From NCBI GenBank assembly GCA_965243135.1, contig OZ251539.1:1856001-1920000 (forward strand): a stretch of 64,000 nucleotides of DNA, written 5' to 3'. Source of the stretch: Alphaproteobacteria bacterium. Its GTDB lineage: Bacteria > Pseudomonadota > Alphaproteobacteria > MPNO01 > UBA830. Of the stretch, positions 23,512-57,560 are shown piece by piece. The position numbers were made by a program, and so were the translations under genes. Within the stretch, counting starts at the first letter, position 1; the number at the start of each line of letters is the position of its first letter. Below the pieces are notes generated by a model. It was not told the DNA's origin. It saw only the letters and a program-made list of their open reading frames with translations, and searched no databases.

Positions 23512-25131
23512 ATGTCCCGGCAGTACGATTACGTCGTCGTCGGCGCCGGTTCGGCCGGGTGCGTCCTCGCCAACCGGCTGACGGCCGATCCCGAACGTTC
23601 CGTCCTGCTCCTCGAAGCAGGCGGCAAGGATCGCAATCCGCTGGTCAGATTGCCGATGCTGATGGGAAAGCTGTTCCTCTCCGGCCTCTATAACTGGAGC
23701 TACCATACCGAGCCGGTTCCGGCCCTGGGCGGCAGGTCGTTGTACTGGCCGCGCGGCAAAGTGCTGGGCGGCTCTTCGACCATCAACGGCATGGTCTACG
23801 TGCGCGGCAATCGCCATGACTACGACCGTTGGGCGCAGTCCGGCCTGCCGGAATGGTCTTACGACGAAGTGTTGCCCGCGTTTCGCCGTTCCGAAGGACA
23901 CGTTCAACGCGCGGACGATTATCACGGAACGGAAGGCGAGTTGACCGTGTGCCGGGCGCGCGGTTCGAATCCGTTGTTCGACGTTTTCGTGGAAGCCGGC
24001 CGCCAAGCCGGCTATCCGGTCAACGACGACTTCAACGGCGCGGAACAGGAAGGTTTCGGGCGTTACGACTTCACCATCAGGAACGGAAAGCGCTGGTCGA
24101 CTTCGTTCGCCTTCCTCCGCCCGATCCGGCGGCGCCGCAACCTTTCGATTCTCACCGGAGCGCTCGTCCGGAAAGTGGTCGTCGAGAACGGTCGGGCGAC
24201 CGGCGTCGAGATCTCGCAAGGCGGGCGCCGCCGGACGATTCGCGCCGCTCGCGAAATCGTCCTTTGCGCCGGCACGGTCAACTCGCCCCAGATCCTCATG
24301 CTGTCGGGCGTCGGGCCCGCCGACGAGATGAAGCGGCACGGGATCGAAGTCGTCCGCGAGCTGCCGGGCGTCGGCCGGAATCTCCAGGACCACGTCGATT
24401 GCGTGATTTCCTACGAATGCACGCAACCCGTCACGCTCTACAGGGATCTCCGGGTCGACCGGCTGATATTCTCGGTCGCCCAGGGCCTGTTCTTCGGCCG
24501 GGGCGTCGTCACCACGTTTCCCTACGAGGGAGGGGCGTTTCTGAAAACGCGTCCCGAACTGCTCGCGCCCGACATACAATTGCACTTCATGCCGACGCTC
24601 GAAAAGACGGCGAACCTGCACTTCTCGAATCCCTTCCGGAGCGAGCCGGCCGAAGCCCATCACGGATTTACGCTCCGGGTCGGGCCGATCAATCCGGAAA
24701 GCCGCGGATTCATCGCGCTCCGCTCGGCCGACCCCGCCGACGCCCCGAAAATTCAGCCCAACTACCTCGAGGACGAAGCCGACTGCAGGACGACGATCGC
24801 CGGGATTCGAATAATCAGGAAGGTAATCGGCCAGCCCGCGTTCGCCCCCTACAGAGGGCGGGAACTCGCGCCCGGCGAAGCGCTGCGCAGCGACGGCGAA
24901 CTCGCCGAATGGCTCCGCGCGAACGCGATGACCACGTTCCACCCCGTGGGCACGTGCAGAATGGGAAACGACCCGATGTCGGTGGTGAACTCCCGGCTTG
25001 CCGTTCACGGCGTCGCCGGACTTCGGGTGGCGGACGCTTCCGTCATGCCGATCATTTCCAGCGGAAACACCAACGCGCCGGCGATCATGATCGGCGAGAA
25101 AGCGGCCGAGTTCATTCACGAAGAAACGTGA
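23512..25131 (+). CDS. GMC oxidoreductase (choline dehydrogenase-like)
   Basis: GAGSAG, GKVLGGSSTINGM, HPVGTCRMG, GNTNAP. Confidence 0.94.
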   Translation: MSRQYDYVVVGAGSAGCVLANRLTADPERSVLLLEAGGKDRNPLVRLPMLMGKLFLSGLYNWSYHTEPVPALGGRSLYWPRGKVLGGSSTINGMVYVRGNRHDYDRWAQSGLPEWSYDEVLPAFRRSEGHVQRADDYHGTEGELTVCRARGSNPLFDVFVEAGRQAGYPVNDDFNGAEQEGFGRYDFTIRNGKRWSTSFAFLRPIRRRRNLSILTGALVRKVVVENGRATGVEISQGGRRRTIRAAREIVLCAGTVNSPQILMLSGVGPADEMKRHGIEVVRELPGVGRNLQDHVDCVISYECTQPVTLYRDLRVDRLIFSVAQGLFFGRGVVTTFPYEGGAFLKTRPELLAPDIQLHFMPTLEKTANLHFSNPFRSEPAEAHHGFTLRVGPINPESRGFIALRSADPADAPKIQPNYLEDEADCRTTIAGIRIIRKVIGQPAFAPYRGRELAPGEALRSDGELAEWLRANAMTTFHPVGTCRMGNDPMSVVNSRLAVHGVAGLRVADASVMPIISSGNTNAPAIMIGEKAAEFIHEET

Positions 25132-25466: not shown

Positions 25467-27003
25467 TCAGGCGGTCTCGAACTCGAACCCGACGATGTTG
25501 CGCTCTTCCCGTCCGAACTCCATGCCGATCAACCGGCACGCCGAGATGCCGGTACTTGTCCGCGTAGCCGCGCTCCCGCATCTGCGCCAGCGCTTGGCCT
25601 TCGTGCTGTTGGTCCACGACCTTGAACTCGTACAGATGCACGCATCCCGGACTCAGCACCGCCATGTCCAGGCGTCCGCGGGCGGTCGCTTCCTCGACCC
25701 GAACGTCCAGACCCGCCGCCGCGAAGTGCGAGTAGACGAGGGCCGCCCAATAGCCCTCGTAGAGCTCGTTCTTCCGGTGCCAGTCGTGAGGAACGCTCGC
25801 GAAGAACGCCTCGAACAGCGTCCTCACCTTCTCCGGATCGTCCTCCGCCGTCAGCCTGGCCAGCTCCGCCTGCCGCGTCGCCTCCTGCCCCGTCGCCGGC
25901 GCCATGACGCGCAGCAGCCTCTTGTTCAGGCTGAGTTTCACCTCGTAGTTCGGGTAGTCCAGCCGGTAGCGGCTGCCGCCGGCGGCGGCCTCCTCGCCGA
26001 CGATGGTCAGATAGCCGGTCTGGAACAAAAGCGCTTCGGTCGAGATGTCGTCGACGTCGAAGGTCGACAGCAGTTCGTCGTCCGCGACAAGCCCCTCAAG
26101 GGCCGGAGGCGCAACCCGGCGCCGCGACAGAAGGTCGACGAGAAAGCGCGGCGTCCCGGTCTCGAACCAGTGCGCCTTGAATTCGCGCGTTTCGAAAAGA
26201 AGCAGGATGTCGAACGGGTTGTAGACCTTGTCCGCGCCGCGCCAGTTGTAGCCGTTGTACCAGCGCCGGATTTCTTCCCGGTCCAGGCCCTCGAGTTCCG
26301 GAGCGAAGACCGCGTCCAGCTCCGCGTCCGTGTAGCCGCAGATGGCGCTGAAACGCGGATCGAGGGTGATGTCGCGCAGGTTGTTCAGGCCCGAGAAAAT
26401 GCCCGCCTGCGAGAACTTGCTCACTCCCGTCAGGAAAACGAAACGCAGCTGCTCGTCGCAGGCCTTGAGCACCCCGTACAGGCTGCGCAGAAAGTCGCGG
26501 TTGGCCCGCGCCAGTTCCCGGTCGCCGAGCGCGTCCAGAATCGGCTTGTCGTATTCGTCCACCAGAATGACCGCCTGCTGCCCGGTGCGCTCGCGCAGGG
26601 CCGCGATCAGTTCCCGGAAGCGGATCGAAACTCTGGCGCTGCCCGGCTCGATGCCGGCCAGCCTCTCCGCCGCCTTCAGTTGCGATTCCGTTTCTTCCCG
26701 AACCCCGTCCGGGTCGCCGAAATCGCCCCCGCCGAAATCCAGCCGCACGACCGGACGGCGCGCCGACCAGTCCCACCCGTCGTGAACGGCGAGGCCCCGG
26801 AACAGCTCCTCGTTTCCCTCGAACAGCTTCTGCAGCGTGTCCACCAGCAGGGTCTTGCCGAACCGGCGCGGACGCGACAGGAAATAGTACTTGCCCCCTT
26901 CGACGAGGCGGCGCACATGGTCCGTCTTGTCGACGTAGTAGCAGTCCATCCCCCGGATCTCGCGCAGGGAGGAAATGCCGGTCGGAAGCATGCGTCTCGC
27001 CAT
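25467..27003 (-). pseudogene. AAA-ATPase + PD-(D/E)XK nuclease, copy A1, frameshifted in the last ~22 codons
   Basis: YYVDKT, SRPRRFGKT, VDEYDKP, D...EFK motifs. A 5-nt deletion near 25535 (aaccggcacg vs aaccggatcggcacg in A2-A4) shifts the frame past the ancestral stop at 25467, reading to 25174. Confidence 0.8.
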
Positions 27004-27038
27004 CCGGGCAGTTTACGCCCATGGACGGCGGCGTTCAA
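27004..27038 (-). promoter_or_regulatory. Sigma70-like leaderless promoter of A1
   Basis: TTGAAC-N17-TAAACT-N6-ATG, no SD. Confidence 0.6.
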
Positions 27039-27329
27039 AGCCGCCAGCCGTCCGGACGATCAACGCGGGCCGTGCCGAAACGCTCCCGAAACCGGGCTTT
27101 CTCGCGCGCAATGAAGCCGTTCCCGTAGACATGCGGGCGGCCACCGAACGCTCCTTGCCATCGTTCGCTCCAGACCGCCGCCGCGACGCTGTCCGGCGAC
27201 CCCAACGCTCGCCGGGAAGCCAATTCCCGTGCCATCGTCGGCTGCCGCCTCTCGTTCCGTTGCCGCGCTCTGAAGTCGCCCTCCAGTCGCTGCGACCCGG
27301 ATTCCGAGAGGCGGCAAGAGCTGCCGCGG
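27004..27329. repeat. Conserved ~320-bp inter-copy spacer of array A (also 28869-29191 and 30740-31057)
   Basis: Three near-identical copies; unit period 1865/1871/1866 bp between ATGs. Confidence 0.9.
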
Positions 27330-28868
27330 TCAAGCGGTCTCGAACTCGACGATGTTGCGCTCTTCCCGGCCGAACTCCATGCCGATCAACCGGATCGGCA
27401 CGCCGAGATGCCGGTACTTGTCCGCGTAGCCGCGCTCCCGAATTTGCGCCAGCGCCCGGCCTTCCGGCCCCCCGTCCACGACCTTGAACTCGTACAGATG
27501 CACGCATCCCGGACTCAGCACAGCCATGTCCAGGCGCCCGTGGGCGGTCGCTTCCTCGACCCGAACGTCCAGACCCGCCGCCGCGAAATGCGAGTAGACG
27601 AGGGCCGCCCAATAGCCCTCGTAGAGCTCGTTCTTCCGGTGCCGGTCGTGAGGAACGCTCGCGAAAAACGCCTCGAACAGCGTCCTCACCTTCTCCGGAT
27701 TGTCCTCCGCCGTCAGCCTGGCCAGTTCCGCCTGCCGCGTCGCCTCCTGCCCCGTTGCCGGCGACATGGCGCGCAACAGCCTCTTGTTCAGGCTGAGCTT
27801 CACCTCGTAGTTCGGGTAGTCCAGCCGGTAGAGGCTCCCGCCGTCGGCGGCCTCCTCGCCGACGATGGTCAGGTAGCCGGTCTGGAACAAAAGCGCTTCG
27901 GTCGAGATGTCGTCGACGTCGAAGGTCGACAGCAAGTCGTCGTCCGCGACCATGCTCTCCAGGGCCGGGGGCGCGATCCGACGCCGCGACAGAAGGTCGA
28001 CGAGGAAGGTCGGCGTGCCGCTCCGGAACCAGTGCGCCTCGAACTGGCGACGCCGGAAAAGCAGCAGGACATCGTACGGGTTGTAGACCTTGTCCGCGCC
28101 GCGCCAGTTGTAGCCGTTGTACCAGCGGCGGACCTCCTCCCGGTCCAAGCCCTCGAGTTCCGGGGCGAAAACCGCGTCCAGCTCCGCATCCGTGTAACCG
28201 CAAATGTCCGAGAACTCCGGCTCCAGCGTGATGTCGATCAGGTTGTTCAGGCCCGAGAAAATGCCCGCCTGCGAGAATTTGCTCACCCCCGTCAGGAAAA
28301 CGAAACGCAGCTGCCTGTCGCAGGCCTTGATCGCCCCGTACAGGCTGCGCAGGAAGTCCCGATTGGCCCGCGCCAGTTCCCGGTCGCCGAGCGCGTCCAG
28401 AATAGGCTTGTCGTATTCGTCGACCAGAACGACCGCCTGCCGCCCGGTACGCTCGTGCAGGGCCTCGATCAATTCCCAGAAACGAACCGACGCCTCGACG
28501 GAGCCCGGTTCAAGGCCGGCGCGCCTCTCCGCCGCCGCCAACTGCGCTTCCACGGTTACGCGAACCCCGTCCGGGGCGCAGAAATCGCCCCCTCTGCTGA
28601 AATCCAGCCGCACGACAGGATGGCGCGCCGACCAGTCCCATTCGTCGTGTATGGCGAGACCCCGGAACGGCACCTCGCTTCCCTCGAACAGCTCCTGCAG
28701 CGTGTCCACAAACAGGGTCTTGCCGAACCGGCGCGGACGCGACAGGAAATAGTGCTTGCCGCCCTCCACGAGGCGGCGCACATGGTCCGTCTTGTCGACG
28801 TAGTAGCAATCCCTCGTCCGGATTTCCCGGAAGGAGGATATGCCGATCGGTAGCATGCGTCTCGCCAT
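27330..28868 (-). CDS. AAA-ATPase + PD-(D/E)XK nuclease, copy A2
   Basis: Intact 512-aa ORF with the same motifs. Confidence 0.92.
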   Translation of the reverse strand: MARRMLPIGISSFREIRTRDCYYVDKTDHVRRLVEGGKHYFLSRPRRFGKTLFVDTLQELFEGSEVPFRGLAIHDEWDWSARHPVVRLDFSRGGDFCAPDGVRVTVEAQLAAAERRAGLEPGSVEASVRFWELIEALHERTGRQAVVLVDEYDKPILDALGDRELARANRDFLRSLYGAIKACDRQLRFVFLTGVSKFSQAGIFSGLNNLIDITLEPEFSDICGYTDAELDAVFAPELEGLDREEVRRWYNGYNWRGADKVYNPYDVLLLFRRRQFEAHWFRSGTPTFLVDLLSRRRIAPPALESMVADDDLLSTFDVDDISTEALLFQTGYLTIVGEEAADGGSLYRLDYPNYEVKLSLNKRLLRAMSPATGQEATRQAELARLTAEDNPEKVRTLFEAFFASVPHDRHRKNELYEGYWAALVYSHFAAAGLDVRVEEATAHGRLDMAVLSPGCVHLYEFKVVDGGPEGRALAQIRERGYADKYRHLGVPIRLIGMEFGREERNIVEFETA

Positions 28869-28903
28869 CCGGGCAGTTTACGCCCATGGACGGCGGCGTT
28901 CAA
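28869..28903 (-). promoter_or_regulatory. Sigma70-like leaderless promoter of A2
   Basis: TTGAAC-N17-TAAACT-N6-ATG. Confidence 0.6.
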
Positions 28904-29191
28904 AGCCGCCAGACGTCCGGACGATCAACGCGGGCCGTGCCGAAACGCTCCGAAACCGGGCTTTCTCGCGCGCAATGAAGCCGTTCCCGTAGACATGCGG
29001 GCGGCCACCGAACGCTCCTTGCCATCGTTCGCTCCAGACCGCCGCCGCGACGCTGTCCGGCGACCGACGCTCGCCGGGAAGCCAATTCCCGTGCCATCGT
29101 CGGCTGCCGCCTCTCGTTCCGTTGCCGCGCTCTGAAGTCGCCCTCCAGTCGCTGCGACCCGGATTCCGAGAGGCGGCAAGAGCTGCCGCGA

Positions 29192-30739
29192 TCAAGCGGT
29201 CTCGAACTCGAACCCGACGATGTTGCGCTCTTCCCGGCCGAACTCCATGCCGATCAACCGGATCGGCACGCCGAGATGCCGGTACTTGTCCGCGTAGCCG
29301 CGCTCCCGCATTTGCGCCAGCGCCCGGCCTTCCGGCCCCCCGTCCACGACCTTGAACTCGTACAGATGCACGCACCCCGGGCTGAGCACAGCCATGTCCA
29401 GGCGTCCGCGGGCGGTCGATTCCTCGACCCGAACGTCCAGACCCGCCGCCGCGAAGTGCGAGTAGACGAGGGCCGCCCAATAGCCTTCATAATTCGCGAG
29501 CTCGTTCTTCCGGTGCCAGTCGTGAGGAATGCTCGCGAAGAACGCCTCGAACAGAGCCCTCACTTTCTCCGGATCGTCCTCCGCCGTCAACCTGGCCAGC
29601 TCCGCCTGCCGCGTCGCGTCCTGCCTCGTTGCCGGCGCCATGGCGCGCAACAGCCTCTTGTTCAGGCTGAGCTTCACCTCGTAGTTCGGGTAGTCCAGCC
29701 GGTAGAGGCTGCCGCCATCGGCGGATTCCTCGCCGACGATGGTCAGATAGCCGGTCTGGAACAAAAGCGCTTCGGTCGAGATGTCGTCGACGTCGAAGGC
29801 CGACAGCAACTCGTCGTCCGCGACAAGCCCCTCAAGGGCCGGCGCCGCGACCCGGCGCCGCGACAGAAGGTCGACGAGGAAGGTCGGCGTGCCGGTCCGG
29901 AACCAGTGCGCCTCGAACCTGCGCGTTTCGAAGAGAAGGAGGACGTCGAACGGGTTGTAGACCTTCTCCGCGCCGCACCAGTTGTAGCCGTTGTACCAGC
30001 GCCGGACTTCTTCCCGGTCCAGGCCCTCGAGTTCCGGGGCGAAGACCGCGTCCAGTTCTTCGTCCGTGTAACCGCAAAGGGCGCCGAAACGCGGATCGAG
30101 GGTGATGTCGCGCAGGTTGTTCAGGCCCGAGAAAATGCCCGCCTGCGAGAACTTGCTCACGCCCGTCAGAAAAACGAAACGCAGTTGCTCGTCGCAAGCC
30201 TTGATCACCCCGTACAGGCTGCGCAGGAAGTCGCGGTTGGCCCGCGCCAGTTCCCGGTCGCCGAGCGCGTCCAGAATCGGCTTGTCGTATTCGTCCACCA
30301 GCACGACCGCCCGCTGCCCGGTGCGCTCGTGCAGGGCCGCGATCAGTTCCCGGAAGCGGATCGAAACTCTGGCGCTGCCCGGCTCGATGCCGGCCAGCCT
30401 CTCCGCCGCCTTCAGTTGCGATTCCGTTTCTTCCCGAACCCCGTCCGGGTCGCCGAAATCGCCCCCGCCGAAATCCAGCCGCACGACCGGATGGCGCGCC
30501 GACCAGTCCCACATGCCGTGCACGGCGAGGCCCCGGAACAACTCCTCGCTGCCCTCGAACAACTTCTGCAGCGTGTCCACCAGGAGGGTCTTGCCGAACC
30601 GGCGCGGACGCGACAGAAAATAGTAATCGCCCCCTTCGACGAGTCGGCGCACATGCTCCGTCTTGTCGACGTAGTAGCAATCCCTCGTCCGGATTTTCCG
30701 GAGGGAAGAAATGCCGATCGGAAGCATGCGTCTCGCCAT
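29192..30739 (-). CDS. AAA-ATPase + PD-(D/E)XK nuclease, copy A3
   Basis: Intact 515-aa ORF. Confidence 0.92.
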   Translation of the reverse strand: MARRMLPIGISSLRKIRTRDCYYVDKTEHVRRLVEGGDYYFLSRPRRFGKTLLVDTLQKLFEGSEELFRGLAVHGMWDWSARHPVVRLDFGGGDFGDPDGVREETESQLKAAERLAGIEPGSARVSIRFRELIAALHERTGQRAVVLVDEYDKPILDALGDRELARANRDFLRSLYGVIKACDEQLRFVFLTGVSKFSQAGIFSGLNNLRDITLDPRFGALCGYTDEELDAVFAPELEGLDREEVRRWYNGYNWCGAEKVYNPFDVLLLFETRRFEAHWFRTGTPTFLVDLLSRRRVAAPALEGLVADDELLSAFDVDDISTEALLFQTGYLTIVGEESADGGSLYRLDYPNYEVKLSLNKRLLRAMAPATRQDATRQAELARLTAEDDPEKVRALFEAFFASIPHDWHRKNELANYEGYWAALVYSHFAAAGLDVRVEESTARGRLDMAVLSPGCVHLYEFKVVDGGPEGRALAQMRERGYADKYRHLGVPIRLIGMEFGREERNIVGFEFETA

Positions 30740-30774
30740 CCGGGCAGTTTACGCCCATGGACGGCGGCGTTCAA
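30740..30774 (-). promoter_or_regulatory. Sigma70-like leaderless promoter of A3
   Basis: TTGAAC-N17-TAAACT-N6-ATG. Confidence 0.6.
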
Positions 30775-31057
30775 AGCCGACAGCCGTCCGGACGATCAAC
30801 GCGGGCCGTGCCGAAACGCTCCCGAAACCGGGCTTTCTCGCGCGCAATGAAGCCGTTCCCGTGACATGCGGGCGGCCACGGAACGCTCCTTGCCATCGTT
30901 CGCTCCAGACCGCCGCCGCGACGCTGTCCGGCGACCAACGCTCGCCGGGAAGCCAATTCCCGCGCTATCGTCGGCTGCCGCCTCTCGTTCCGTTGCCGTG
31001 AAGTCGCCCTCCAGTCGCTGCGATCCGGATTCCGGGATGCGGCAAGAGCTGCCGCGG

Positions 31058-32605
31058 TCAAGCGGTCTCGAACTCGAACCCGACGATGTTGCGCTCTTCC
31101 CGGCCGAACTCCATGCCGATCAACCGGATCGGCACGCCGAGATGCCGGTACTTGTCCGCGTAGCCGCGCTCCCGCATTTGCGCCAGCGCCCGGCCTTCCG
31201 GCCCCCCGTCCACGACCTTGAACTCGTACAAATGCACGCATCCCGGACTCAGCACGGCCATGTCCAGGCGTCCGTGGGCGGTCGCTTCCTCGACCCGAAC
31301 GTCCAGACCCGCCGCCGCGAAATGCGAGTAGACGAGGGCCGCCCAATAGCCCTCGTAATTCGCGAGCTCGTTCTTCCGGTGCCAGTCGTGAGGAACGCTC
31401 GCGAAGAACGCCTCGAACAGCGCCCTCACCTTCTCCGGATCGTCCTCCGCCGTCAGCCTGGCCAGTTCCGCCTGCCGCGTCGCCTCCCGTCCCGTCGTCG
31501 GCGCCATCGCGCGCAGCAGCCGTCTGTTCAGACTGAACTTCACCTCGTGGTTCGGGTAATCCAGCCGGTACAGGCTCTCGCCGTCGGCGGCCTCTTCGCC
31601 GACGATGGTCAGGTAGCCGGTCTGGAACAAAAGCGTCTCGATCGATATGTCGTCGACGTCGAAGGTCGACAGCAAGTCGTCGTCCGCGACCATGCTCTCC
31701 AGGGCCGGAGGCGTGACCCGGCACCGCGACAGAAGGTCGACGAGGAAGGTCGGCGTGCCGCTCCGGAACCAGTGCGCCTTGAACTCGCGCGTTTCGAAGA
31801 GAAGGAGGATATCGAACGGGTTGTAGACCCTCTCCGGACCGCGCCAGTTGTAGCCGTTGTACCAGCGCTGGACTTTCTTCCGGTCCAGGCCCTCGAGTTC
31901 CGGGGAGAAGACCGCGTCCAGATCGGCGTCCGTGTAGCCGCAGATGGCGCCGAAATGCGGATCGAGGGTGATGTCGCGCAGGTTGTTCAGGCCCGAGAAG
32001 AGGCCCGCCTGCGAGAACTTGCTCACCCCCGTCAGGAAAACGAAACGGAGATGCCTGTCGCAGTCCTTGACCGCTCCGTACAGGCTGCGCAGGAAGTCGC
32101 GGTTGGCCGTCGCCAGCTCCCGGTCGCCGAGCGCGTCCAAGATCGGCTTGTCGTATTCGTCGACCAGAACGACCGCCTGCTGCCCGGTGCGCTCGTGCAG
32201 GGCCTCGATCAATTCCCAGAAACGGTTCGACGCCTCGACAGGGCCCGGTTCGAGGCCGGCGCGCCTCTCCGCCGCCGCCAACTGTCTTTCCACGGTTTCC
32301 CGAACCCCGTCCGGAACGACGAAATTGCCCCTGCCGAAGCTGAGCCGCACGACCGGACTGCGCGCCGACCAGTCCCAATTGTCGTGCACGGCGAGGCCCC
32401 GGAACAGCTCCTCGCTTCCCTCGAACAGCTCCTGCAACGTGTCCACAAGCAGGGTCTTGCCGAACCGGCGCGGACGCGACAGGAAGTAGTACTTGCCCCT
32501 CTCGACGAGGCGGCGCACATGGTCCGTCTTGTCGACGTAGTAGCAATCCCTCGTCCGGATTTCCCTGAGAGAGGTCATCCCGATCGGAAGCATGAGTCTT
32601 TCCAT
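31058..32605 (-). CDS. AAA-ATPase + PD-(D/E)XK nuclease, copy A4
   Basis: Intact; MERLMLPIG start aligns with the paralog starts. Confidence 0.92.
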   Translation of the reverse strand: MERLMLPIGMTSLREIRTRDCYYVDKTDHVRRLVERGKYYFLSRPRRFGKTLLVDTLQELFEGSEELFRGLAVHDNWDWSARSPVVRLSFGRGNFVVPDGVRETVERQLAAAERRAGLEPGPVEASNRFWELIEALHERTGQQAVVLVDEYDKPILDALGDRELATANRDFLRSLYGAVKDCDRHLRFVFLTGVSKFSQAGLFSGLNNLRDITLDPHFGAICGYTDADLDAVFSPELEGLDRKKVQRWYNGYNWRGPERVYNPFDILLLFETREFKAHWFRSGTPTFLVDLLSRCRVTPPALESMVADDDLLSTFDVDDISIETLLFQTGYLTIVGEEAADGESLYRLDYPNHEVKFSLNRRLLRAMAPTTGREATRQAELARLTAEDDPEKVRALFEAFFASVPHDWHRKNELANYEGYWAALVYSHFAAAGLDVRVEEATAHGRLDMAVLSPGCVHLYEFKVVDGGPEGRALAQMRERGYADKYRHLGVPIRLIGMEFGREERNIVGFEFETA

Positions 32606-32641
32606 TCGGCAAGAATAGGCCGCCGCGACGGAAACTGTCAA
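32606..32641 (-). promoter_or_regulatory. Sigma70-like leaderless promoter of A4
   Basis: TTGACA-N18-TATTCT-N6-ATG. Confidence 0.65.
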
Positions 32642-33302
32642 TTTATTTCAGACGCGCCGTGCCACGTTCTTGCCGGCTGCCGTCCGCTCGGCGCTCCGCT
32701 CTTCGCCTGACAGCCAGTTGTCACACGGATCATTTATAGGCACTCTCTCAAGCTTGAAGCGCAACATGCATGGCGGCCGACTGACCGTCCGCATGCAACG
32801 GAGAGGTCAGGCGGTCGATCTCCGTAAGCGTTCGCTACCCGGGATTTCGTCCGGGGACCGAACACGGGATCCTTCGCCCCTTTTGCTGCGACCGACGGAC
32901 GAGGGGCTTTGTCGCCGGCAACGGCCCTCCGGCGACGGGACGAGGCGCGCAGGAAGCGGAAACGTCGCGCGGAGGCAGGTCAGCAGGCGACGGTCCGGAA
33001 AACGCAGCACGGTCGGGCGCGGGGCCGAGGCGGCGCGCAACGAGCTGAAACGCCTGAAGTCCGCCTCTTCGGTGAACGGGCTTGAGCGGGAAGCGGGCCG
33101 CCTTCGGCACGATCTTGCGAGGCCGGGGAAGCGACTCGACGAGACCGAACGCGAGAACGCCCGCCTGCGGACGCGCCGCGAGTTCCCGGTCAGGACGCGG
33201 CCTCCGGGAATCCGCCCGTTCGACCGCGGAGAGGCCGCGCCGGCGGCCCCACGAACGAAACGCGCAGGGGGACCGCACCGGTCAACCGCAACAGGAGCAG
33301 AG

Positions 33303-34655
33303 ATGCGACCGCAGATGAAACTCGGCATGTTCTATTGGCCTTGCGGCCACCACATTGCCGCATGGCGCCATCCCGACGCGTTCGCCGATTCCGGCGCCAA
33401 CGTCCAACACCTCGTCGACCTCGCCAAACTTTCGGAACGCGGCCTGTTCGACATGTTCTTCATGGCCGACAGCGTCACCTTCTGGCGCGGCGATCTCGAC
33501 TCCATGATTCGGGATTCCTACGGCGCCTGGATAGAACCGTTCACTCTCATGTGCACCCTGGCTCAGCACACGAGGCATCTCGGCCTCGTCTGCACCGCGA
33601 CGGCGACCTACGACCAGCCTTATTCGCTTGCGCGCCGTTTCGCCTCGCTCGATCTGGCCAGCGGGGGCCGCGCCGGATGGAACCTGGTGACGAGCGGCAA
33701 CAAGTTGGAGGCGGATAGTTTCGGGTTGACCGAACACGTCGAGAAGTCGGCCCGTTACCGGCGGGCGGGAGAGTTCGCTCACGCGGTGCGCGGACTCTGG
33801 AACTCTTGGGACGACGGCGCCTTCCTGCGCGACAAGGACGCCGGGGTCTATTACGACCGCGACAAGATCCGGATTCTGGAATACGAGGGCGAGTTTCTGC
33901 GCTGTCGCGGTCCACTCAACGTGCCGCCGTCGCCGCAGGGCGAACCGGTTCTCGTTCAGGCCGGCGCGTCCGAGGACGGCCGCGAACTGGCCGCCGCCAC
34001 GGCCGAGGTCGTGTTCGGAGCCGCGCAGACCATCGACTACGCGCAAGCGTTTTATTCGGACGTGAAGGGCCGCATGTCGACTTACGGCCGCGACCCGGAC
34101 AGCCTGAAAATCATGCCCGGCCTGTCGGTCAACGTGGGGAGCACCAGATCCGAAGCGGAAGCCAAATTCGAGGAGCTTCAGGATCTCATCGATCCGACGA
34201 CGGGGTTGGCGTTGCTGTCGCAGCGACTGGATTACGATCTCTCCGGCTACGACGTGGACGATCCGTTTCCGGACATTCCGGCGACCGGCGGCAGCCGCGC
34301 CGAAATCCTTATCGGAACCGCCCGCTCCAACGACATGACCATCAAGGATCTGTACCGCCACATCGCCGGCGCGCGGGGCCATTACCAGATCAACGGGACG
34401 CCCGGGGACATCGCCGACATGATGGAGGAATGGGTGACCGAGGCCGCCTGCGACGGCTTCAACATCATGCCTCCTCTCTATCCCAACGGCCTGGAGGACT
34501 TTATCGAGATGGTCGTGCCGGAACTGCAGCGCCGCGGCTTGTACCGGACCCGATACGAAGCGACGACGCTGCGCGGCAATCTCGGCCTGGAGCGTCCGCC
34601 GTGGCCCCCGCCTGCGGACGATGCGAACGCCGCGAGAAACCCGCGGACAGCCTGA
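33303..34655 (+). CDS. NtaA/DmoA/SoxA-family FMN-dependent monooxygenase
   Basis: AWRHPDA, ERGLFDMFFMAD, GRAGWNLVTS, QAGASEDGR, VVPELQRRG; AGGAG RBS. Confidence 0.92.
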   Translation: MRPQMKLGMFYWPCGHHIAAWRHPDAFADSGANVQHLVDLAKLSERGLFDMFFMADSVTFWRGDLDSMIRDSYGAWIEPFTLMCTLAQHTRHLGLVCTATATYDQPYSLARRFASLDLASGGRAGWNLVTSGNKLEADSFGLTEHVEKSARYRRAGEFAHAVRGLWNSWDDGAFLRDKDAGVYYDRDKIRILEYEGEFLRCRGPLNVPPSPQGEPVLVQAGASEDGRELAAATAEVVFGAAQTIDYAQAFYSDVKGRMSTYGRDPDSLKIMPGLSVNVGSTRSEAEAKFEELQDLIDPTTGLALLSQRLDYDLSGYDVDDPFPDIPATGGSRAEILIGTARSNDMTIKDLYRHIAGARGHYQINGTPGDIADMMEEWVTEAACDGFNIMPPLYPNGLEDFIEMVVPELQRRGLYRTRYEATTLRGNLGLERPPWPPPADDANAARNPRTA

Positions 34656-49889: not shown

Positions 49890-51419
49890 TCAGGCGGGCT
49901 CGCAATCGAAGCCGACGACGTTGCGCTCCTCGCGGCTGAACTCCACCCCGATCAGGTGGACCGAACGTCCGAGACGACGGTACTTGTCCGCATAGCCCTT
50001 CTCCCGCAACTGCGCGAGCGCGGTCCCCTCCCGCCCGCGCTCCACCACCTTGAACTCGAACAGGTAGACGCCGCCGCCGGCGCGGATCGCCATGTCGGCG
50101 CGCCCCCGGCTGCCGCTGTCCTCGGCCACCGGCTCGAAGCCCTCCATCAGGAAGCAGCTGTGGATGACGCTCGCGTAGTGGGCCTCGTACACCGGGCTGT
50201 TCATGTACCACTGGTGCGGGATGGCGGCGAAGACGCCGCGGAACAGGGTCCCGATGCGTTCGAAGTCGTTCGCCTCCAGCAGTTCGCCCAGCCGCAGGCG
50301 CCCCGTCTTTTTGCGGGCCTCGACCGGGAGCAGTTCTTCCAGCAAGGCCTCGCCCAGGCTCTGGCGCACCTCGAGGTTCGGGTAGTCCAGCCTGTAGCGC
50401 CCGTCCTCCTCGCCGACGATGGTGAGGTAGCCGGTCTGGAACAGAAGCGCCTCGACCGAGATATTGTCCACGTCGAAGGTCGAGAGCAGGCTCTCGCTGC
50501 CGATCATGCCGTCCAGGTCGGGAGTGGGCAGGTCGCGGCGCGCCAGCGTCTCGACCAGGAAGGTCGGCGTGCCGCTATGGAACCAGTAGTTGCCGAACTT
50601 GCGTTTGTCAAACAGCAGCAGGAGGCCGAACGGGTTGTAGACCCTCTCCGGTCCGAGCCAGTTGTAGCCGTTGTACCAGCGGCGGACCTCGTCCCGGTCC
50701 AGGCCCTCGAGTTCCGGGGCGAAGACCGCGTCCAGTTCCGCGTCCGTGCAACCGCAGATGGCGCCGTAGCGCTCGTCCAGCGTGATGTCGTTCAGGTTGT
50801 TCAGGCCCGAGAACAGGCCCGCCTTCGAGAATTTGCTCACTCCCGTCAGGAAAACGAAACGGAGATGCCTGTCGCAGGCCTTGATCACCCCGTACAGGCT
50901 GCGCAGGAAGTCGCGGTTGGCCCGCGCCAGTTCCCGGTCGCCGAGCGCGTCCAGGATCGGCTTGTCGTATTCGTCCACCAGAACCACCGCCCGCTGCCCG
51001 GTGCGTTCGTGCAGGTCCGCGATCAGTTCCCGGAAGCGGACCGAAACTCTGGCGCCGCCCGGCTCGATGCCGGCCCGCCTCTCCGCCGCCTTCAGTTGCG
51101 ATTCCGTTTCTTCCCGAACTCCGTCCGGGTCGCCGAAATCGCCCCCGCCGAAATCCAGCCGCACGACAGGATAACGTATCGACCAGTCCCACCTGCCGTG
51201 CACGGCGAGGCCCCGGAACAGCTCCTCGCTTCCCTCGAACAACTCCTGCAGCGTGTCCACCAGCAGGCTCTTGCCGAACCGGCGCGGACGCGACAGGAAA
51301 TAGTACTTGCCCCTTTCGACGAGGCGGCGCACATGGTCCGTCTTGTCGACGTAGTAGCAGTCCATCCCCCGGATCTCCCGGAGGGAGGAAAAGCCGATCG
51401 GAAGCATGCGTTGCGTCAT
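49890..51419 (-). CDS. AAA-ATPase + PD-(D/E)XK nuclease, copy B1
   Basis: Intact 509 aa; promoter TTGACG-N17-TACCCT-N6-ATG at 51426-51454. Confidence 0.92.
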   Translation of the reverse strand: MTQRMLPIGFSSLREIRGMDCYYVDKTDHVRRLVERGKYYFLSRPRRFGKSLLVDTLQELFEGSEELFRGLAVHGRWDWSIRYPVVRLDFGGGDFGDPDGVREETESQLKAAERRAGIEPGGARVSVRFRELIADLHERTGQRAVVLVDEYDKPILDALGDRELARANRDFLRSLYGVIKACDRHLRFVFLTGVSKFSKAGLFSGLNNLNDITLDERYGAICGCTDAELDAVFAPELEGLDRDEVRRWYNGYNWLGPERVYNPFGLLLLFDKRKFGNYWFHSGTPTFLVETLARRDLPTPDLDGMIGSESLLSTFDVDNISVEALLFQTGYLTIVGEEDGRYRLDYPNLEVRQSLGEALLEELLPVEARKKTGRLRLGELLEANDFERIGTLFRGVFAAIPHQWYMNSPVYEAHYASVIHSCFLMEGFEPVAEDSGSRGRADMAIRAGGGVYLFEFKVVERGREGTALAQLREKGYADKYRRLGRSVHLIGVEFSREERNVVGFDCEPA

Positions 51420-51534
51420 TCGAAGAGGGTAGGCCGCCGCGCCGGAGCCGTCAAGAAGTCGGCGGCGGCAGGCCTGTCTGCGTCCCCTGGCGCGGCAAGC
51501 AGCCGGCAGTTTCCGCGGCGGCCCGGGCGGTACG

Positions 51535-51722
51535 GCGGGTTTTCCGGCGGCGGCCTGAAACGGAGGACGACCAACAAGGAGAGCGCCGCCGCGCCCAGAC
51601 AAGAAGTCCGCCGCGACGCCCGGAAGCGACACGACCGGAAGCTGTCGCCGCGCCCGAAACGGCGAGGTCGACCGCCAGTCCGCGCCTGCGAACGAAGTAG
51701 CGGGAAACCGCGGCCGTGACCA
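51535..51722 (-). pseudogene. Decayed fragment of the MFS gene at 63182-64000
   Basis: Aligns by eye to ~63815-64000 with several short deletions. Confidence 0.8.
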
Positions 51723-51938
51723 GCGGGCGGTCGGCGGGGGGTAGGCGTCGAGGCGCGCCGGCTTCACCCACCTGCTGCCCTTCCGTTCACGCGGCCTCCC
51801 CATTTCCGGCAGACGTAAACTCGTCGACGTCGAGTTCCTCCCGAAGCTCCCGGGGCCCGGCGTCCCTCCGCCGCCGGCCGCCGGGGAATTCCCCCGCTCC
51901 GCCCTCCGGCCGCCGCGACGGCGAAAACGACCGGCTCT
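51716..51938 (-). pseudogene. mutT: mutT (Nudix 8-oxo-dGTPase) relic
   Basis: Fragments EFPGG, RELREELD, YVCRKWGGRVNGREG, WVKPARLDAYP, PADRPLV across frames. Confidence 0.75.
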
Positions 51939-52118
51939 CCCGCCCTGCGGCGCGGAACCCGGAGACGCGCCCGGCCCGCGAAACCTGCAGGGAGACGCCG
52001 CCGGCCCCGAGGCGGCCTCCTCGGCCGGGCGGCCCGTCAAGCCGCGCGACGAACCGGCGGAACCGGCTGCCGTCGCGCGCGGCGTTCTGTCGCGGAGGCG
52101 GCCGTGACGGGAAGCCGT

Positions 52119-53654
52119 TCAGGCGGGCTCGCAATCGAAGCCGACGACGTTGCGCTCCTCGCGGCTGAACTCCACCCCGATCAGGTGGACCGAACGTCCG
52201 AGACGACGGTACTTGTCCGCATAGCCCTTCTCCCGCAACTGCGCGAGCGCGGTCCCCTCCCGCCCGCGCTCCACCACCTTGAACTCGAACAGGTAGACGC
52301 CGCCGCCGGCGCGGATCGCCATGTCGGCGCGCCCCCGGCTGCCGCTGTCCTCGGCCACCGGCTCGAAGCCCTCCATCAGGAAGCAGCTGTGGATGACGCT
52401 CGCGTAGTGGGCCTCGTACTTCGCGACCGGGCTGTTCATGTACCACTGGTGCGGGATGGCGGCGAAGACGCCGCGGAACAGGGTCCCGATGCGTTCGAAG
52501 TCGTTCGCCTCCAGCAGTTCGCCCAGCCGCAGGCGCCCCGTCTTCTTGCGGGCCTCGACCGGGAGCAGTTCTTCCAGCAAGGCCTCGCCCAGGCTCTGGC
52601 GCACCTCGAGGTTCGGGTAGTCCAGCCTGTAGCGCCCGTCCTCCTCGCCGACGATGGTGAGGTAGCCGGTCTGGAACAGAAGCGCCTCGACCGAGATATT
52701 GTCCACGTCGAAGGTCGAGAGCAGGCTCTCGCTGCCGATCATGCCGTCCAGGTCGGGAGTGGGCAGGTCGCGGCGCGCCAGCGTCTCGACCAGGAAGGTC
52801 GGCGTGCCGCTATGGAACCAGTAGTTGCCGAACTTGCGTTTGTCGAACAGCAGCAGGAGGCCGAACGGGTTGTAGACCCTCTCCGGTCCGAGCCAGTTGT
52901 AGCCGTTGTACCAGCGGCGGACCTCGTCCCGGTCCAGGCCCTCGAGTTCCGTGGCGAAGACCGCGTCCAGTTCCGCGTCCGTGCAACCGCAGATGGCGCC
53001 GTAGCGCTCGTCCAGCGTGATGTCGTTCAGGTTGTTCAGGCCCGAGAACAGGCCCGCCTTCGAGAATTTGCTCACTCCCGTCAGGAAAACGAAACGGAGA
53101 TGCTCGTCGCAGTCCTTGATAACCCCGTACAGGCTGCGCAGGAAGTCCCGGTTGGCCCGCGCCAGCTCCCGGTCGCCGAGCGCGTCCAGGATCGGCTTGT
53201 CGTATTCGTCCACCAGAACCACCGCCCGCTGCCCGGTGCGTTCGTGCAGGTCCGCGATCAGTTCCCGGAAGCGGACCGAAACTCTGGCGCCGCCCGGCTC
53301 GATGCCGGCCCGCCTCTCCGCCGCCTTCAGTTGCGATTCCGTTTCTTCCCGAACTCCGTCCGGGTCGCCGAAATCGCCCCCGCCGAAGCTGATCCGCACG
53401 ACCGGATGGCGTATCGACCAGTCCCACTTGCCGTGCACGGCGAGGCCCCGGAACAGCTCCTCGCTTCCCTCGAACAGCCTCTGCAGCGTGTCCACCAGCA
53501 GGGTCTTGCCGAACCGGCGCGGACGCGACAGGAAATAGTAATCGCCCTCTTCGACGAGGCGGCGCACATGGTCCGTCTTGTCGACGTAGTAGCAGTTCCT
53601 CGTCCGGATTTTCCGGAGGGAGGTCATGCCGATCGGAAGCATGCGTTTCGCCAT
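52119..53654 (-). CDS. AAA-ATPase + PD-(D/E)XK nuclease, copy B2
   Basis: Intact 511 aa; promoter TTGACG-N17-TACTCT-N6-ATG at 53661-53689. Confidence 0.92.
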   Translation of the reverse strand: MAKRMLPIGMTSLRKIRTRNCYYVDKTDHVRRLVEEGDYYFLSRPRRFGKTLLVDTLQRLFEGSEELFRGLAVHGKWDWSIRHPVVRISFGGGDFGDPDGVREETESQLKAAERRAGIEPGGARVSVRFRELIADLHERTGQRAVVLVDEYDKPILDALGDRELARANRDFLRSLYGVIKDCDEHLRFVFLTGVSKFSKAGLFSGLNNLNDITLDERYGAICGCTDAELDAVFATELEGLDRDEVRRWYNGYNWLGPERVYNPFGLLLLFDKRKFGNYWFHSGTPTFLVETLARRDLPTPDLDGMIGSESLLSTFDVDNISVEALLFQTGYLTIVGEEDGRYRLDYPNLEVRQSLGEALLEELLPVEARKKTGRLRLGELLEANDFERIGTLFRGVFAAIPHQWYMNSPVAKYEAHYASVIHSCFLMEGFEPVAEDSGSRGRADMAIRAGGGVYLFEFKVVERGREGTALAQLREKGYADKYRRLGRSVHLIGVEFSREERNVVGFDCEPA

Positions 53655-53754
53655 CGGAAGAGAGTAGGCCGCCGCGCCGGAGCCGTCAAGAAATCGGCGG
53701 CGGCAGGCGCGTCCCCTGGCGCGGCAAGCAGCCGGCAGTTTCCGCTGCGGCGGC

Positions 53755-54235
53755 GGGCGTCGGCGGGTTTTCCGGCGGCGGCCTGAAACGGAGGACGACC
53801 AACAGGGAGAGCGCCGCCGCGCCCAGACAAGAAGTCCGCCAGCCGGCGACGCCCGGAAGCGACACGACCGGAAGCTGTCGCCGCGCCCGAAACGGCGAGG
53901 TCGACCGCCAGTCCGCGCCTGCGAACGAAGTAGCGGGAAACCGCGGCCGTGACCAGCGGCAGCGAGACGGCCGCCCGCCCGCCCACAAGTCCGAACGGAA
54001 GGTAGGCGGTTCCGCGGCGAAGGCGGTGCCGCCGGCAGCGAGGGCGCCCGCGGCGAACGGCGCCCCGCAGCGGTCCCTGCCCGCCACCGGAGACCCGACG
54101 GCCACCCAAGGAGGCGGCGGCCTGCGCTCCCGTCCACCCGAGTTCCGACTGCCAAGACGGGAGAACCATGCTCACGGACGACCGCGCGCCGAAAGTGAAG
54201 GCCAGCGCGGCGAAGCAGACGACGGCCGGCGCGCG
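53755..54235 (-). pseudogene. Longer decayed MFS relic (N-terminal half)
   Basis: AVVCFAALAFTFGARSSVSMVLPSWQSELGWT, plus a segment matching 63815-64000. Confidence 0.75.
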
Positions 54236-54464
54236 TCTCGTCGGTCACCGGAGTCGCGCTCCTGCGCCGCGTCGCCCGGCGAAACGCCGGAAATCCGCCC
54301 CGGCGCCGGCCGCGAAACGGCGCGCCGCCGAAAAGGGACGGCCGCAACTCCGGAAGAGCCGCGTCACCGCGCAGCATGGCGACCAGCACTTTGTTGGTTG
54401 CCTCAACCACGCCTGACGGCGTAGCCTCCGACCTTCAGGATCGCGTAGCGCATGCGACGCCGGT

Positions 54465-54680
54465 CCTTCCGTTCACGCGGCCTCCCCATTTCCGGCAGAC
54501 GTAAAGCGGCCAGATGAAAATCGTCGGTGAGACGCGAAGGTGAACGGCGAAAGGCAGATCTCGTCGATGTCGAGTTCCTCCCGAAGCTCCCGGGCCCGGC
54601 GTCCCTCCGCCGCCGGCCGCCGGGGAATTCCCCCGCTCCGCCCTCCGGCCGCCGCGACGGCGAAAACGACCGGCTCTCCA
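54465..54680 (-). pseudogene. mutT: mutT relic (best preserved copy)
   Basis: PVVFAVAAA / RPEG..GEFPGG / RELREELDIDEICLSPFTFASH / DDFHL / PLYVCRKW. Confidence 0.85.
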
Positions 54681-54790
54681 GCCCTGCGGCGCGGAACCCG
54701 GAGACGCGCCCGGCCCGCGAAGCCTGCAGGGAGACGCCGCCGGCCCCGAAGCGGCGTTCTTTCGCGGAGGCGGCCGTGACGGGAAGCCGT

Positions 54791-56297
54791 TCAGGCGGGC
54801 TCGCAGCCGACGACGTTGCGCTCCTCGCGGCTGAACTCCACCAGGTGGACCGAACGTCCGAGACGGCGGTACTTGTCCGCGTAGCCCTTCTCCCGCAGTT
54901 GCGCGAGCGCGCCCCCCTCCCGTCCGCGCTCCACCACCTTGAACTCGAACAGGTAGACGCGCCCGCCGACGCGGATCGCCATGTCGGCGCGCCCCCGGCT
55001 GCCGCTGTCCTCGGCCACCGGCTCGAAGCCCTCCATCAGGAAGCAGCTGTGGATGACGCTCGCGTAGTGGGCCTCGTACACCGGGCTGTTCATGTACCAC
55101 TGGTGCGGGGCGAAGACGCCGCGGAACAGGGTTCCGATGCGTTCGAAGTCGTTCGCCTCCAGCAGTTCGCCCAGCCGCAGGCGCCCCGTTTTCTTGCGCG
55201 CCTCGACCGGGAGCAGTTCTCCCAGCAAGGCCTCGCCCAGGCTCTGGCGCACCTCGAGGTTCGGGTAGTCCAGCCGGTAGTGCCTGTCCTCCTCGCCGGC
55301 GATGGTGAGGTAGCCGGTCTGGAACAGAAGCGCCTCGACCGAGATATTGTCCACGTCGAAGGTCGAGAGCAGGCTCTCGCTGCCGATCATGCCGTCCAGG
55401 TCGGGAGTGGGCAGGTCGCGGCGCGCCAGCGTCTCGACCAGGAAGGTCGGCGTGCCGCTATGGAACCAGTAGTTGCCGAACTTGCGTTTGTCGAACAGCA
55501 GCAGGAGGCCGAACGGGTTGTAGACCCTCTCCGGTCCGAGCCAGTTGTAGCCGTTGTACCAGCGCCGGATTTCGTCCCGGTCCAGGCCCTCGAGTTCCGG
55601 GGCGAAGACCGCGTCCAGTTCCGCGTCCGTGCAGCCGCAGATGGCGCCGTAGCGCTCGTCCAGCGTGATGTCGTTCAGGTTGTTCAGGCCCGAGAACAGG
55701 CCCGCCTTCGAGAATTTGCTCACTCCCGTCAGGAAAACGAAACGGAGATGCTCGTCGCAGTCCTTGATAACCCCGTACAGGCTGCGCAGGAAGTCGCGGT
55801 TGGCCCGCGCCAGCTCCCGGTCGCCGAGCGCGTCCAGGATCGGCTTGTCGTATTCGTCCACCAGAACCACCGCCCGCTGCCCGGTGCGTTCGTGCAGGTC
55901 CGCGATCAGTTCCCGGAAGCGGACCGAAACTCTGGCGCCGCCCGGCGCCGGCCCGCCTCTCCGCCGCCCTCAGTTGCGATTCCGTTTCTTCCCGAACTCC
56001 GTCCGGGTCGCCGAAATCGCCCCCGCCGAAGCTGATCCGCACGACCGGATGGCGTATCGACCAGTCCCACCTGCCGTGCACGGCGAGGCCCCGGAACAAC
56101 TCCTCGCTTCCCTCGAACAGCTTCTGCAGCGTGTCCACCAGGAGGGTCTTGCCGAACCGGCGCGGACGCGACAGGAAATAGTACTTGCCCCTCTCGACGA
56201 GGCGGCGCACATGGTCCGTCTTGTCGACGTAGTAGCAGTTCATCCCCCGGATCTCCCGGAGGGAGGAAAAGCCGATCGGAAGCATGCGTTGCGTCAT
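54791..56297 (-). pseudogene. AAA-ATPase + PD-(D/E)XK nuclease, copy B3, frameshifted
   Basis: 5-nt deletion near 55946 (cccggcgccgg vs cccggctcgatgccgg) plus four in-frame 6-nt deletions; promoter retained at 56304-56332. Confidence 0.88.
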
Positions 56298-56519
56298 TCG
56301 AAGAGGGTAGGCCGCCGCGCCGGAGCCGTCAAGAAGTCGGCGGCGGCAGGCCTGTCCGCGTCCCCTGGCGCGGCAAGCAGCCGGCAGTTTCCGCTGCGGC
56401 ACGGCGGGGAAAAACGCGGGGACGAGCGAACCTGTCGCTCCGCGGAAATCCTGCCCCGCTGAGACGAGCGCGTTCGACGCGCGGCCTGGAGGCAGCGGGC
56501 GGAAGCGAACGCCGACGGC

Positions 56520-56930
56520 TGGCGCCGCCAGCAAAGGCGACGCGCGTCGACAACGATCTCGGCACCGGATTCGCGAACCTCGACGGCAAGGTCGACGCCC
56601 TCGCCGCGGAAACCAGGGCCGACGCAACGCGACGGCAAGCGCCCTCGCCAGGGAAAGCCGCGCGCCTCGAAACCACGACGATTGCCGCGGCAGGCCTCGC
56701 CGCCATACTTGCAGTTGGTCCGCCGCACCCGCGCGCGCGACGACATGCGAGTCCCGGCGGCTACATGCACAGGCATGGCAGCGCCGCACCCGCGCGCGCG
56801 ACGACATGCGCCGCAAGCGGCGAAACGCCTGAACGTCAGGCAACGGTTCCGTCGAACGAGAGCGTCGTCCGGTCGAGCGAGCGGACTTCCGCCGCCGAAA
56901 ACCATGGGCTCGTTCGAAACCGTCAACCGA
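56520..56930 (-). pseudogene. Possible relic of an AMP-binding (acyl-CoA ligase) gene N-terminus
   Basis: ARPDDALV..NR.LTFRRFAA and N.KY..E fragments; heavily frameshifted. Confidence 0.3.
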
Positions 56931-57021
56931 AGCGGCTCGCGAAACCGGAAACGGTGACGGCAGGCGTTGGCCTCCGTTTTTGAACTCCTGACCTCTCCGC
57001 AACATCAAAACGGTCGGTCAG

Positions 57022-57193
57022 CAGCAATTCCCGCTAAGGCGGCCGCATGTCCGGAAGGTGCGCCGAGAAGGCGAAATCACCAAGGGACAAGCCGCCGCGA
57101 CAAATCCCTCAGGCAAATCGCACTACCCGGAAAAATCTACGAAAAATTTTTCTGAAACCCCATATTTTCCAAGGGCCATAGCGGGAATTGCCG
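57022..57193. mobile_element. 172-bp MITE, copy 1
   Basis: TIRs CAGCAATTCCCGCTAAGGC / GCCATAGCGGGAATTGCCG; 9-bp direct repeat GTCGGTCAG at 57013-57021 and 57194-57202. Confidence 0.82.
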
Positions 57194-57239
57194 GTCGGTC
57201 AGCCACCATGCGCGTTGCGCTTCAAACTTGAAGGGGCGC

Positions 57240-57352
57240 TCCTCGACGTCGAGTTCCTCCCTGAGCTCCCGGGCCCGGCGTCTCTCCACCGCCGGCCATC
57301 GGGGAATTCCTTGCCCTGCGGCCGCAGCCACGACGAGAACGACCGGCTCTCC
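57240..57352 (-). pseudogene. mutT: mutT relic (5' part)
   Basis: EPVVLVVAAA, GKEFP, GGETP, RELREELD. Confidence 0.65.
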
Positions 57353-57560
57353 AGCCCTGCGGCGCGGAACCCGGAGACGCGCCCGACCCGCGAAGCCTGC
57401 CGGCGCGCGAGCGCCTGCAGGGAGACGCCGCCGGCCCCGAGGCGGCCTCCTCGGCCGGGCGGCCCGTCAAGCCGTGCGACGAACCGGCGGAACCGGCTGC
57501 CGCCGCGGGCCGAACCCGCGTCGGCGTTCTTTCGCGGAGGCGGTCGTGACGGGAAGCCGT

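Follow-up and report, generated by a model that had tools for sequence, protein, structure and literature searches.

Anatomy of Array A

We analysed Array A, a tandem array of DUF1703 genes within a 64,000-nucleotide stretch of the genome of an Alphaproteobacteria bacterium (GenBank assembly GCA_965243135.1, contig OZ251539.1, positions 1,856,001 to 1,920,000). This whole stretch is referred to as the window, and positions in the feature list below are counted from its first letter. The array consists of four co-oriented genes on the minus strand, three of them intact (A1 to A3) and one broken (A4). An initial annotation, made from the letters alone, had described four paralogs of about 515 amino acids, three of them intact, repeated at periods of about 1.87 kb and separated by a near-identical spacer of about 320 bp. 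This description proved accurate: the start-to-start periods are 1866, 1871 and 1865 bp, the spacers are mutually 95-98.5% identical, and it is A4 whose frame is interrupted. The array end at 32641 was corrected; this position is the first base of the A1 -35 box (TTGACA), and the likely start of A1 is the ATG at 32605. The following features were delimited (IS, insertion sequence; transposable elements of the miniature inverted-repeat kind are called MITEs).

31058..32605, minus strand: A1, intact DUF1703 gene of 515 amino acids; AAA+ ATPase with RPRRFGK and DEYD, C-terminal PD-(D/E)XK nuclease
32612..32641, minus strand: promoter-like motif of A1, TTGACA-N18-TATTCT, 6 nucleotides before the ATG, probably of the leaderless type
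32198..32350, minus strand: variable block of A1 (residues 86-136), version 6 of 8
30740..31057, minus strand: spacer A1-A2, 318 bp, ending in TTGAAC-N17-TAAACT, 6 nucleotides before the A2 ATG
29192..30739, minus strand: A2, intact DUF1703 gene of 515 amino acids
30332..30484, minus strand: variable block of A2, version 4, as in A4
28869..29191, minus strand: spacer A2-A3, 323 bp, with a promoter-like end as in spacer A1-A2
27330..28868, minus strand: A3, intact DUF1703 gene of 512 amino acids
28458..28613, minus strand: variable block of A3, version 5
27004..27329, minus strand: spacer A3-A4, 326 bp, with a promoter-like end as in spacer A1-A2; present in contigs of runs X1 and X4
25467..27003, minus strand: A4, DUF1703 gene with its frame broken by a 5-bp deletion near 25534
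26596..26748, minus strand: variable block of A4, identical to that of A2 over 150 nucleotides
32650..32685, minus strand: decayed look-alike of an IS1182/IS5-like MITE right end, just upstream of the A1 -35 box (assessed by eye; its score is under the profile threshold)
32748..33170, no strand assigned: IS scraps upstream of the array, comprising a variant of an IS30-like end at 32748-32765 and, at 32824-32842, a repeated end putatively of IS66
23512..25131, plus strand: host flank, GMC oxidoreductase, convergent with A4
33315..34655, plus strand: host flank, luciferase-like monooxygenase, divergent from A1
49890..61750, minus strand: second cluster of the DUF1703 family, of another C-terminal subfamily, with 77-80% nucleotide identity to Array A

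The DUF1703 family is defined by an AAA-ATPase_like domain (PF09820) and a PDDEXK_9 domain (PF08011) (Knizewski et al. 2007, PMC1913061). Assignment to it, already made in the initial annotation, was confirmed by profile search. In all four array copies, both domains exceeded the Pfam cut-offs, PF09820 with 198-205 bits against 26.1 (E about 1e-58 to 1e-60) and PF08011 with 44-56 bits against 25.5 (E 1e-11 to 1e-15). The signature motifs defined in that paper (RPRRFGK[ST], DEYD and the nuclease E/D/ExK/Q) were present; the array genes share its domain order, RPRRFGK Walker A, DEYD Walker B and nuclease motifs I-IV, and no difference from this description was seen at family level. A sequence search for relatives of solved structure returned none, and matches in the ESM Atlas belonged to the DUF1703 family only. 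In A4, the 5-bp deletion shifts the frame after about residue 490 and, according to a structure model, removes the last two predicted nuclease strands; this copy also carries an in-frame 6-bp deletion.

Both flanks of the array are ordinary metabolic genes. Tandem Repeats Finder is blind to a period of 1.87 kb, and Rfam at gathering score gave no match within the window. An aromatic-catabolism cluster elsewhere in the window contains two Rieske ring-hydroxylase alpha subunits in tandem (17603-20229), which are 65% alike.

The genome-wide family and its variable block

A search of the organism's own genome gave 237 matches, merging into 165 loci, of which 95 are intact, 30 broken although of full length and 40 partial. 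The loci are grouped in 79 clusters and make up 3.5% of the genome. DUF1703 is the largest family in a rough gene set of this genome. The initial annotation had read the array as a repertoire; that its members are diversified and under selection was upheld, but the unit of interest is the family of 165 loci and not the array. The median protein identity of intact copies is 71%. A -35/-10 pair lies 6-7 bases before the ATG in 92 of the 95 intact copies, and a Shine-Dalgarno-like word was found in 1 of 140 copies, which makes it likely that each copy is its own leaderless transcription unit. A bias of clusters towards the leading strand was not significant (51 of 79, p 0.07).

The Walker A GK, the Walker B DE and the nuclease residues E439, E461 and K463 are kept in all 95 intact copies, and D448 in 91 of them. 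Among A1-A3, the ratio of non-synonymous to synonymous divergence (dN/dS) is 0.33-0.36. Clean deletions of 5 and 6 bp, frequently at AT(C), are far more common in the repeats of this genome than deletions of other lengths, and repeats other than DUF1703 show about equal numbers of both (845 and 780 deletion sites, respectively). Per intact DUF1703 copy, there are 0 deletions of 5 bp and 0.63 of 6 bp, the latter clustered at few sites, compared with 1.6 and 2.5, respectively, in each of 28 broken copies; for 6-bp deletions in residues 1-149, the figures are 1/60 in intact and 10/70 in broken copies. Frameshifts are purged, and the protein appears to be maintained. One deletion of the 5-/6-bp type was also present in run X1. 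The DUF1703 nuclease itself was considered as the cause of these deletions, an idea that found no support because the DUF1703-rich loci fetched from genomes G004, G031 and G032 (parts of these genomes) lack the 5-6-bp peak.

Within the order, 4 of 61 genomes have matches at E 1e-30, with about 1 to more than 100 copies. Five other genomes, chosen as holders of the gene, have 14-72 matches each, with tandem runs of their own. The 77 best loci out of 624 relatives are spread over many phyla, with identities of 48-65%, and viral contigs yielded only distant relatives (11 loci at 32-43%). In trees built with FastTree (unrooted or midpoint-rooted, without a clade test), the 95 intact copies form one clade when the whole protein is used, and no such clade when the C-terminal half or the variable block is used. 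Lineage-specific expansion of DUF1703 with recombination among paralogs and no homogenisation has been reported in Cardinium cCpun (Siozios et al. 2019, PMC6387759). There, however, 25 paralogs at 39% identity were involved, compared with 165 loci at 71% here, and the present genome additionally has tandem arrays, copies with promoters of their own, a variable block that is discrete, and copies that are IS passengers.

Several further features of this and other genomes were recorded. An Arenicellales genome contains a run of about twelve DUF1703 copies with a 2.1-kb period (G031:C2:2316200-2340000). In genome G002, of the same genus, the DUF1703 copies found have their break close to residue 82, where breaks are also most frequent in the own genome. 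A group II intron lacking an open reading frame (G000:1150700-1151575; RF02003 77 bits, RF00029 51 bits) occupies an identical codon in about eight DUF1703 copies, and a degraded copy of it lies in the window at about 58100-58730. A gene at G000:5657082-5658626 belongs to a second dispersed nucleoside triphosphatase (NTPase) family (16 genes, weak AAA_22/AAA_35 matches), likewise without near-identical copies. Three copies of a conjugative-element-like region are located at about 0.34-0.53, 2.90-3.00 and 5.39-5.56 Mb of G000.

Among intact copies, residues 86-135 form a block that occurs in about eight versions, assorting freely over three C-terminal subfamilies; Array A holds three of the versions. 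The rank correlation between the block and C-terminal segments is 0.02-0.05, as against 0.7-0.8 for segments of the C-terminal half among themselves. The block is also the most variable segment, weakly linked to the C-terminal half, in G004 (19 copies), G031 (35) and G032 (23), these being the copies in the fetched stretches of those genomes.

In the structure model (predicted local distance difference test score 84.5), the block covers a pair of helices lying between strand 2 and the strand of the Walker B motif. A fold search was led by the archaeal ATPases Sso1545 (Z 15.5, 281 residues aligned, root-mean-square deviation 4.0) and Paby2304 (Z 15.3), followed by NLR, Orc1 and TnsC proteins: a resistosome scored Z 12.8 (269, 4.0), Orc2 10.4 (278, 5.5) and TnsC 9.6 (237, 4.2), the helical insert being placed by topology only. 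The C-terminus matched the nuclease domain of Wolbachia CinB as well as CidB (Z 10.6, 139 aligned, deviation 3.2). The Orc1/Cdc6, TnsC and STAND/NLR ATPases appear to share with the model an AAA+ core followed by helical domains and the helices between strand 2 and the Walker B strand; here, in contrast, a C-terminal nuclease replaces the sensor repeat or transposase-binding tail, and the Walker A is atypical. TnsC carries its DNA-binding initiator-specific motif between helix 2 and strand 3 (bioRxiv 10.1101/2021.05.24.445525), and Orc1 contacts DNA through an initiator-specific motif (PMC3607249). From the model we infer that the block sits at the position of this motif and would face DNA.

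Mosaicism of the copies and the spread of some of them between IS ends

The initial annotation had proposed an amplifiable accordion, for which the analysis gave no evidence; the copies are not near-identical. The maximum nucleotide identity between any two of the 95 intact copies is 97.7%, whereas in a control IS a neighbour of at least 99% identity exists for 30 of 30 copies, and the closest relative of an intact copy lies within 20 kb in 11 cases and more than 20 kb away in 84. In Array A, the spacers occur three times genome-wide, all within the array, and are more alike than the genes they separate (89-93.5% nucleotide identity). This combination of a private spacer and more divergent genes points to a fairly recent local duplication, with the genes later overwritten from outside; their greater divergence would be due to segments imported from distant copies. 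Synonymous distances among the array genes are near 0.2. A2 and a copy at a distance of 1.2 Mb agree at 148 variable sites in a row (16 expected), and A4 shares 132 consecutive variable sites with that same distant copy; the identical tract that A2 shares with a copy at 1.2 Mb is about 220 bp long. Among the informative sites of the array, 46 of 58 pair A1 with A3 and A2 with A4.

An empty site for Array A was not found in the three relatives examined, where the flanking genes are non-syntenic, and a metagenome scan with a word from a flank was blank. A 386-nucleotide contig from a sponge metagenome of another study (run X4) covers the whole A3-A4 spacer with one difference, entering the genes by only 20 and 26 letters, below the search tool's 31-letter bridging rule. 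The unique flanks of the array match run X1 without differences; runs X8 and X10 gave no cover of the spacer. The runs containing the stretch include sponge metagenomes, and no RNA run was listed among them. A match to GcrA points to an alphaproteobacterium.

Across the family, the flanks shared by copies are ragged (0 to over 1500 bp) and no family-specific ends were detected. Between rpoN and hpf, one copy is present here, while the site is empty in 2 of 2 relatives with a match; between hisS and prfA, copies are present here, while the site is empty in 4 of 5 relatives, one having a 1.3-kb gap. Short gaps in relatives indicate that the copies at both sites are genuine insertions. Next to the rpoN-hpf copy lies a motif with 115 occurrences in the genome, which forms the right inverted repeat both of a MITE of 310-370 bp and of a broken IS1182/IS5-like element (a label given from weak family matches below the cut-off). 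We had considered it as the DUF1703 gene's own terminus, which was rejected given this identity.

Pairs of left and right ends have perfect 5-bp duplications in 14 of 54 cases, compared with 0.4% for cross-combinations. Fourteen end pairs enclose DUF1703 genes, two of them with a perfect duplication and one with a single mismatch. The perfect cases are G000:5668400-5670469 (2,070 bp, one copy) and 3669725-3673782 (4,058 bp, two copies); duplications with one mismatch were seen at G000:3837397-3842700 and at the copy at 2280885. In one subfamily, IS30-like ends adjoin 20 of 50 copies and IS1182/IS5-like ends 5 of 50; in the others, the counts are 1 of 45 and 19 of 45, respectively. Three loci are bracketed by IS30-like ends, and no duplication was readable there. 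Every transposase copy found for the IS1182/IS5-like carrier is broken. The dispersal of these passenger elements was by hitchhiking between IS ends and not by self-transposition. Composite transposons, transporter ISs and MITE-derived carriers likewise hold passenger genes between IS-type inverted repeats with target duplications (PMC9330008); here, the carrier lacks a transposase and the passenger is a large recombining family.

IS ends adjoin 63 of the 165 loci, compared with 35 and 5 of 1708 control genes, and 42 of the 79 clusters, yet such counts are not independent and are inflated by co-duplication. Other observations also limit the passenger reading. Thirty-seven clusters have no IS end, and 11 of the 14 gene-enclosing end pairs have no duplication. 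At A1-A4 no IS end above threshold was found, only the decayed look-alike upstream. Finally, the IS1182/IS5-like element was not found in G004, which has about 20 DUF1703 copies, so the passenger route is not general.

A -35-like word comes after 28 of 79 solo right ends, compared with 10.5% of intergenic windows, an association that could explain how new units land upstream of older ones. The MITE right end (115 sites) also tends to lie 1-25 bases upstream of -35-like boxes of host genes, and in two MITE cases the duplicated target is TTGAA. Exact insertion at the -35 hexamer was considered (TTGAC close to 15 of 77 boundaries on the right-hand side, compared with 6.5% of control windows, with no fixed phase) and was replaced by the reading based on IS ends. 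Other cargo was noted as well. Rpn/YhgA-like genes lie between the same MITE ends with 5-bp duplications at G000:165102-168450 and 4059414-4061214, and tandem small coiled-coil genes (12 in the genome) are joined by the same MITE right end at G000:3733400-3734500 and 4045500-4050100. Two clusters (G000:5753000-5755600 and 4797300-4801700) have direct duplications at their flanks, measuring about 100 and 300-400 bp.

Explanations for the expansion and its significance

The account that we prefer is local tandem amplification within a segment-swapping, partly IS-carried family of 165 loci, encoding varied ATP-gated nucleases directed against incoming DNA; taken as a whole, we consider it evenly balanced between being right and being wrong, its anatomical and recombinational parts being far surer than the role as a nuclease repertoire. 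According to this account, a founder with its own promoter would have reached the site, probably on an IS-ended element of which remains persist upstream of A1. Unequal recombination would then have produced four units, as indicated by the private spacer of 320 bp, and gene conversion from distant copies would have replaced parts of each gene. Each copy would be transcribed as a leaderless message, and its Orc1/STAND-like ATPase would bind DNA or a trigger via the variable block and license the C-terminal nuclease. If the block is a binding surface, its versions would confer different specificities. A role in defence against invaders is plausible, and a defence repertoire would explain the maintenance of many intact, separately expressed and diversified copies.

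Several results speak against parts of this account. Many copies sit between housekeeping genes and not in defence islands, and PADLOC 2.0 gave 0 defence families for 2 of 2 copies searched at E up to 0.1; in a passage of a review (PMC10952713), PF09820 is listed only as a domain match in RADAR, PARIS and Old-Tin. The match of the block to the DNA-binding motif is one of topology, not a residue-level overlay. The block is the most variable part across phyla too, its ratio of non-synonymous to synonymous polymorphism (pN/pS), at 0.81, does not exceed 1, and recombination is free throughout the N-terminal half, which cautions against over-reading it; relaxed constraint and easy conversion between conserved flanks could explain its variability. 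Family-wide, dN/dS is 0.56 (600 random pairs), 30 of 125 full-length copies are broken, and the deletion contrast between intact and broken copies could partly reflect copy age.

Among the rival explanations, the one that we take most seriously, though we consider it unlikely, is a selfish gene whose ATPase-nuclease drives its own copying (through a cut that is repaired from a paralog) or penalises loss of the gene, as has been proposed for NTPase and restriction endonuclease (REase) elements and as is the case for the beetle Medea1. The all-or-many distribution within the order, the 14-72 matches in the five genomes chosen as holders and the relatives in many phyla (best 77 of 624) would fit such a gene, as would the single clade of 95 copies with a self-contained promoter, and the architecture has been called mobile (PMC11342252). 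However, the copies lack family-specific ends, and the sharp ends that do exist are those of ISs that have transposases themselves, and Rpn genes are carried by these ends too. No pair reaches the identity seen throughout the control IS, though gene conversion would erase such identity, and no antitoxin partner was seen. Compared with the CR-NTPase8 and CR-REase7 elements and Tribolium Medea1 as described in that paper, there is no sign here of the nuclease acting as its own transposase, and no killing phenotype is known. Rather improbable is near-neutral hitchhiking in an IS-rich genome under weak selection, with gene conversion alone keeping most frames open: 21% of the rest of the genome is repeated, other families are expanded too, and 70 of the 165 loci are broken or partial, but the catalytic residues are invariant, dN/dS is below 1, the promoter is conserved, and a smaller share of the 6-bp deletions falls in residues 1-149 in intact than in broken copies.

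Still less probable, in our view, is that the proteins are nuclease effectors acting on an animal host, as suggested for Cardinium DUF1703. The fold matches to the CidB/CinB nuclease domains, the sponge metagenomes among the runs holding the stretch and the signal peptides predicted in 10 of 25 Cardinium paralogs (PMC6387759) agree with this; on the other hand, the conserved ATPase starts at residue 6-7 and leaves no leader (no signal-peptide predictor was run), and no secretion genes flank Array A. An assembly artefact from strain variants, which the initial annotation had named among the findings that would undo its reading, is very hard to credit. The genome does come from a source of metagenome type, and the array is nowhere bridged from end to end by one contig, but identity among the array copies is only 89-93.5% and different block versions occur among them, the highest identity for any pair of intact copies is 97.7%, the private spacer appears in contigs of two studies, and run X1 agrees with the unique flanks throughout.

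A more ambitious form of our preferred account is doubtful, and a shade less likely than the selfish gene: about a hundred separately expressed ATPase-nucleases would constitute a variable-receptor system, in which a DNA-facing block is shuffled by gene conversion among few deep versions, seeded by IS carriers upstream of promoters and arisen in parallel in sponge-type bacteria of several phyla.

The family is known, and so is this kind of expansion; what is added here is its larger scale, a convergent variable block and a documented passenger route. Literature searches, with subscription papers mostly outside reach, found no paper on a DUF1703 expansion of such size, in sponge-type bacteria or as an IS passenger. 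DUF1703 is a widespread family with repeated unexplained expansions, and this genome offers a route by which it may spread, combining passenger transposition, tandem duplication and gene conversion. It also provides a natural panel, in which one surface block comes in about eight versions and is combined with three backgrounds of the nuclease half, so that function could be tested by block swaps. If the block does set the target, the family would represent a recombination-diversified, immune-like repertoire in a bacterium.

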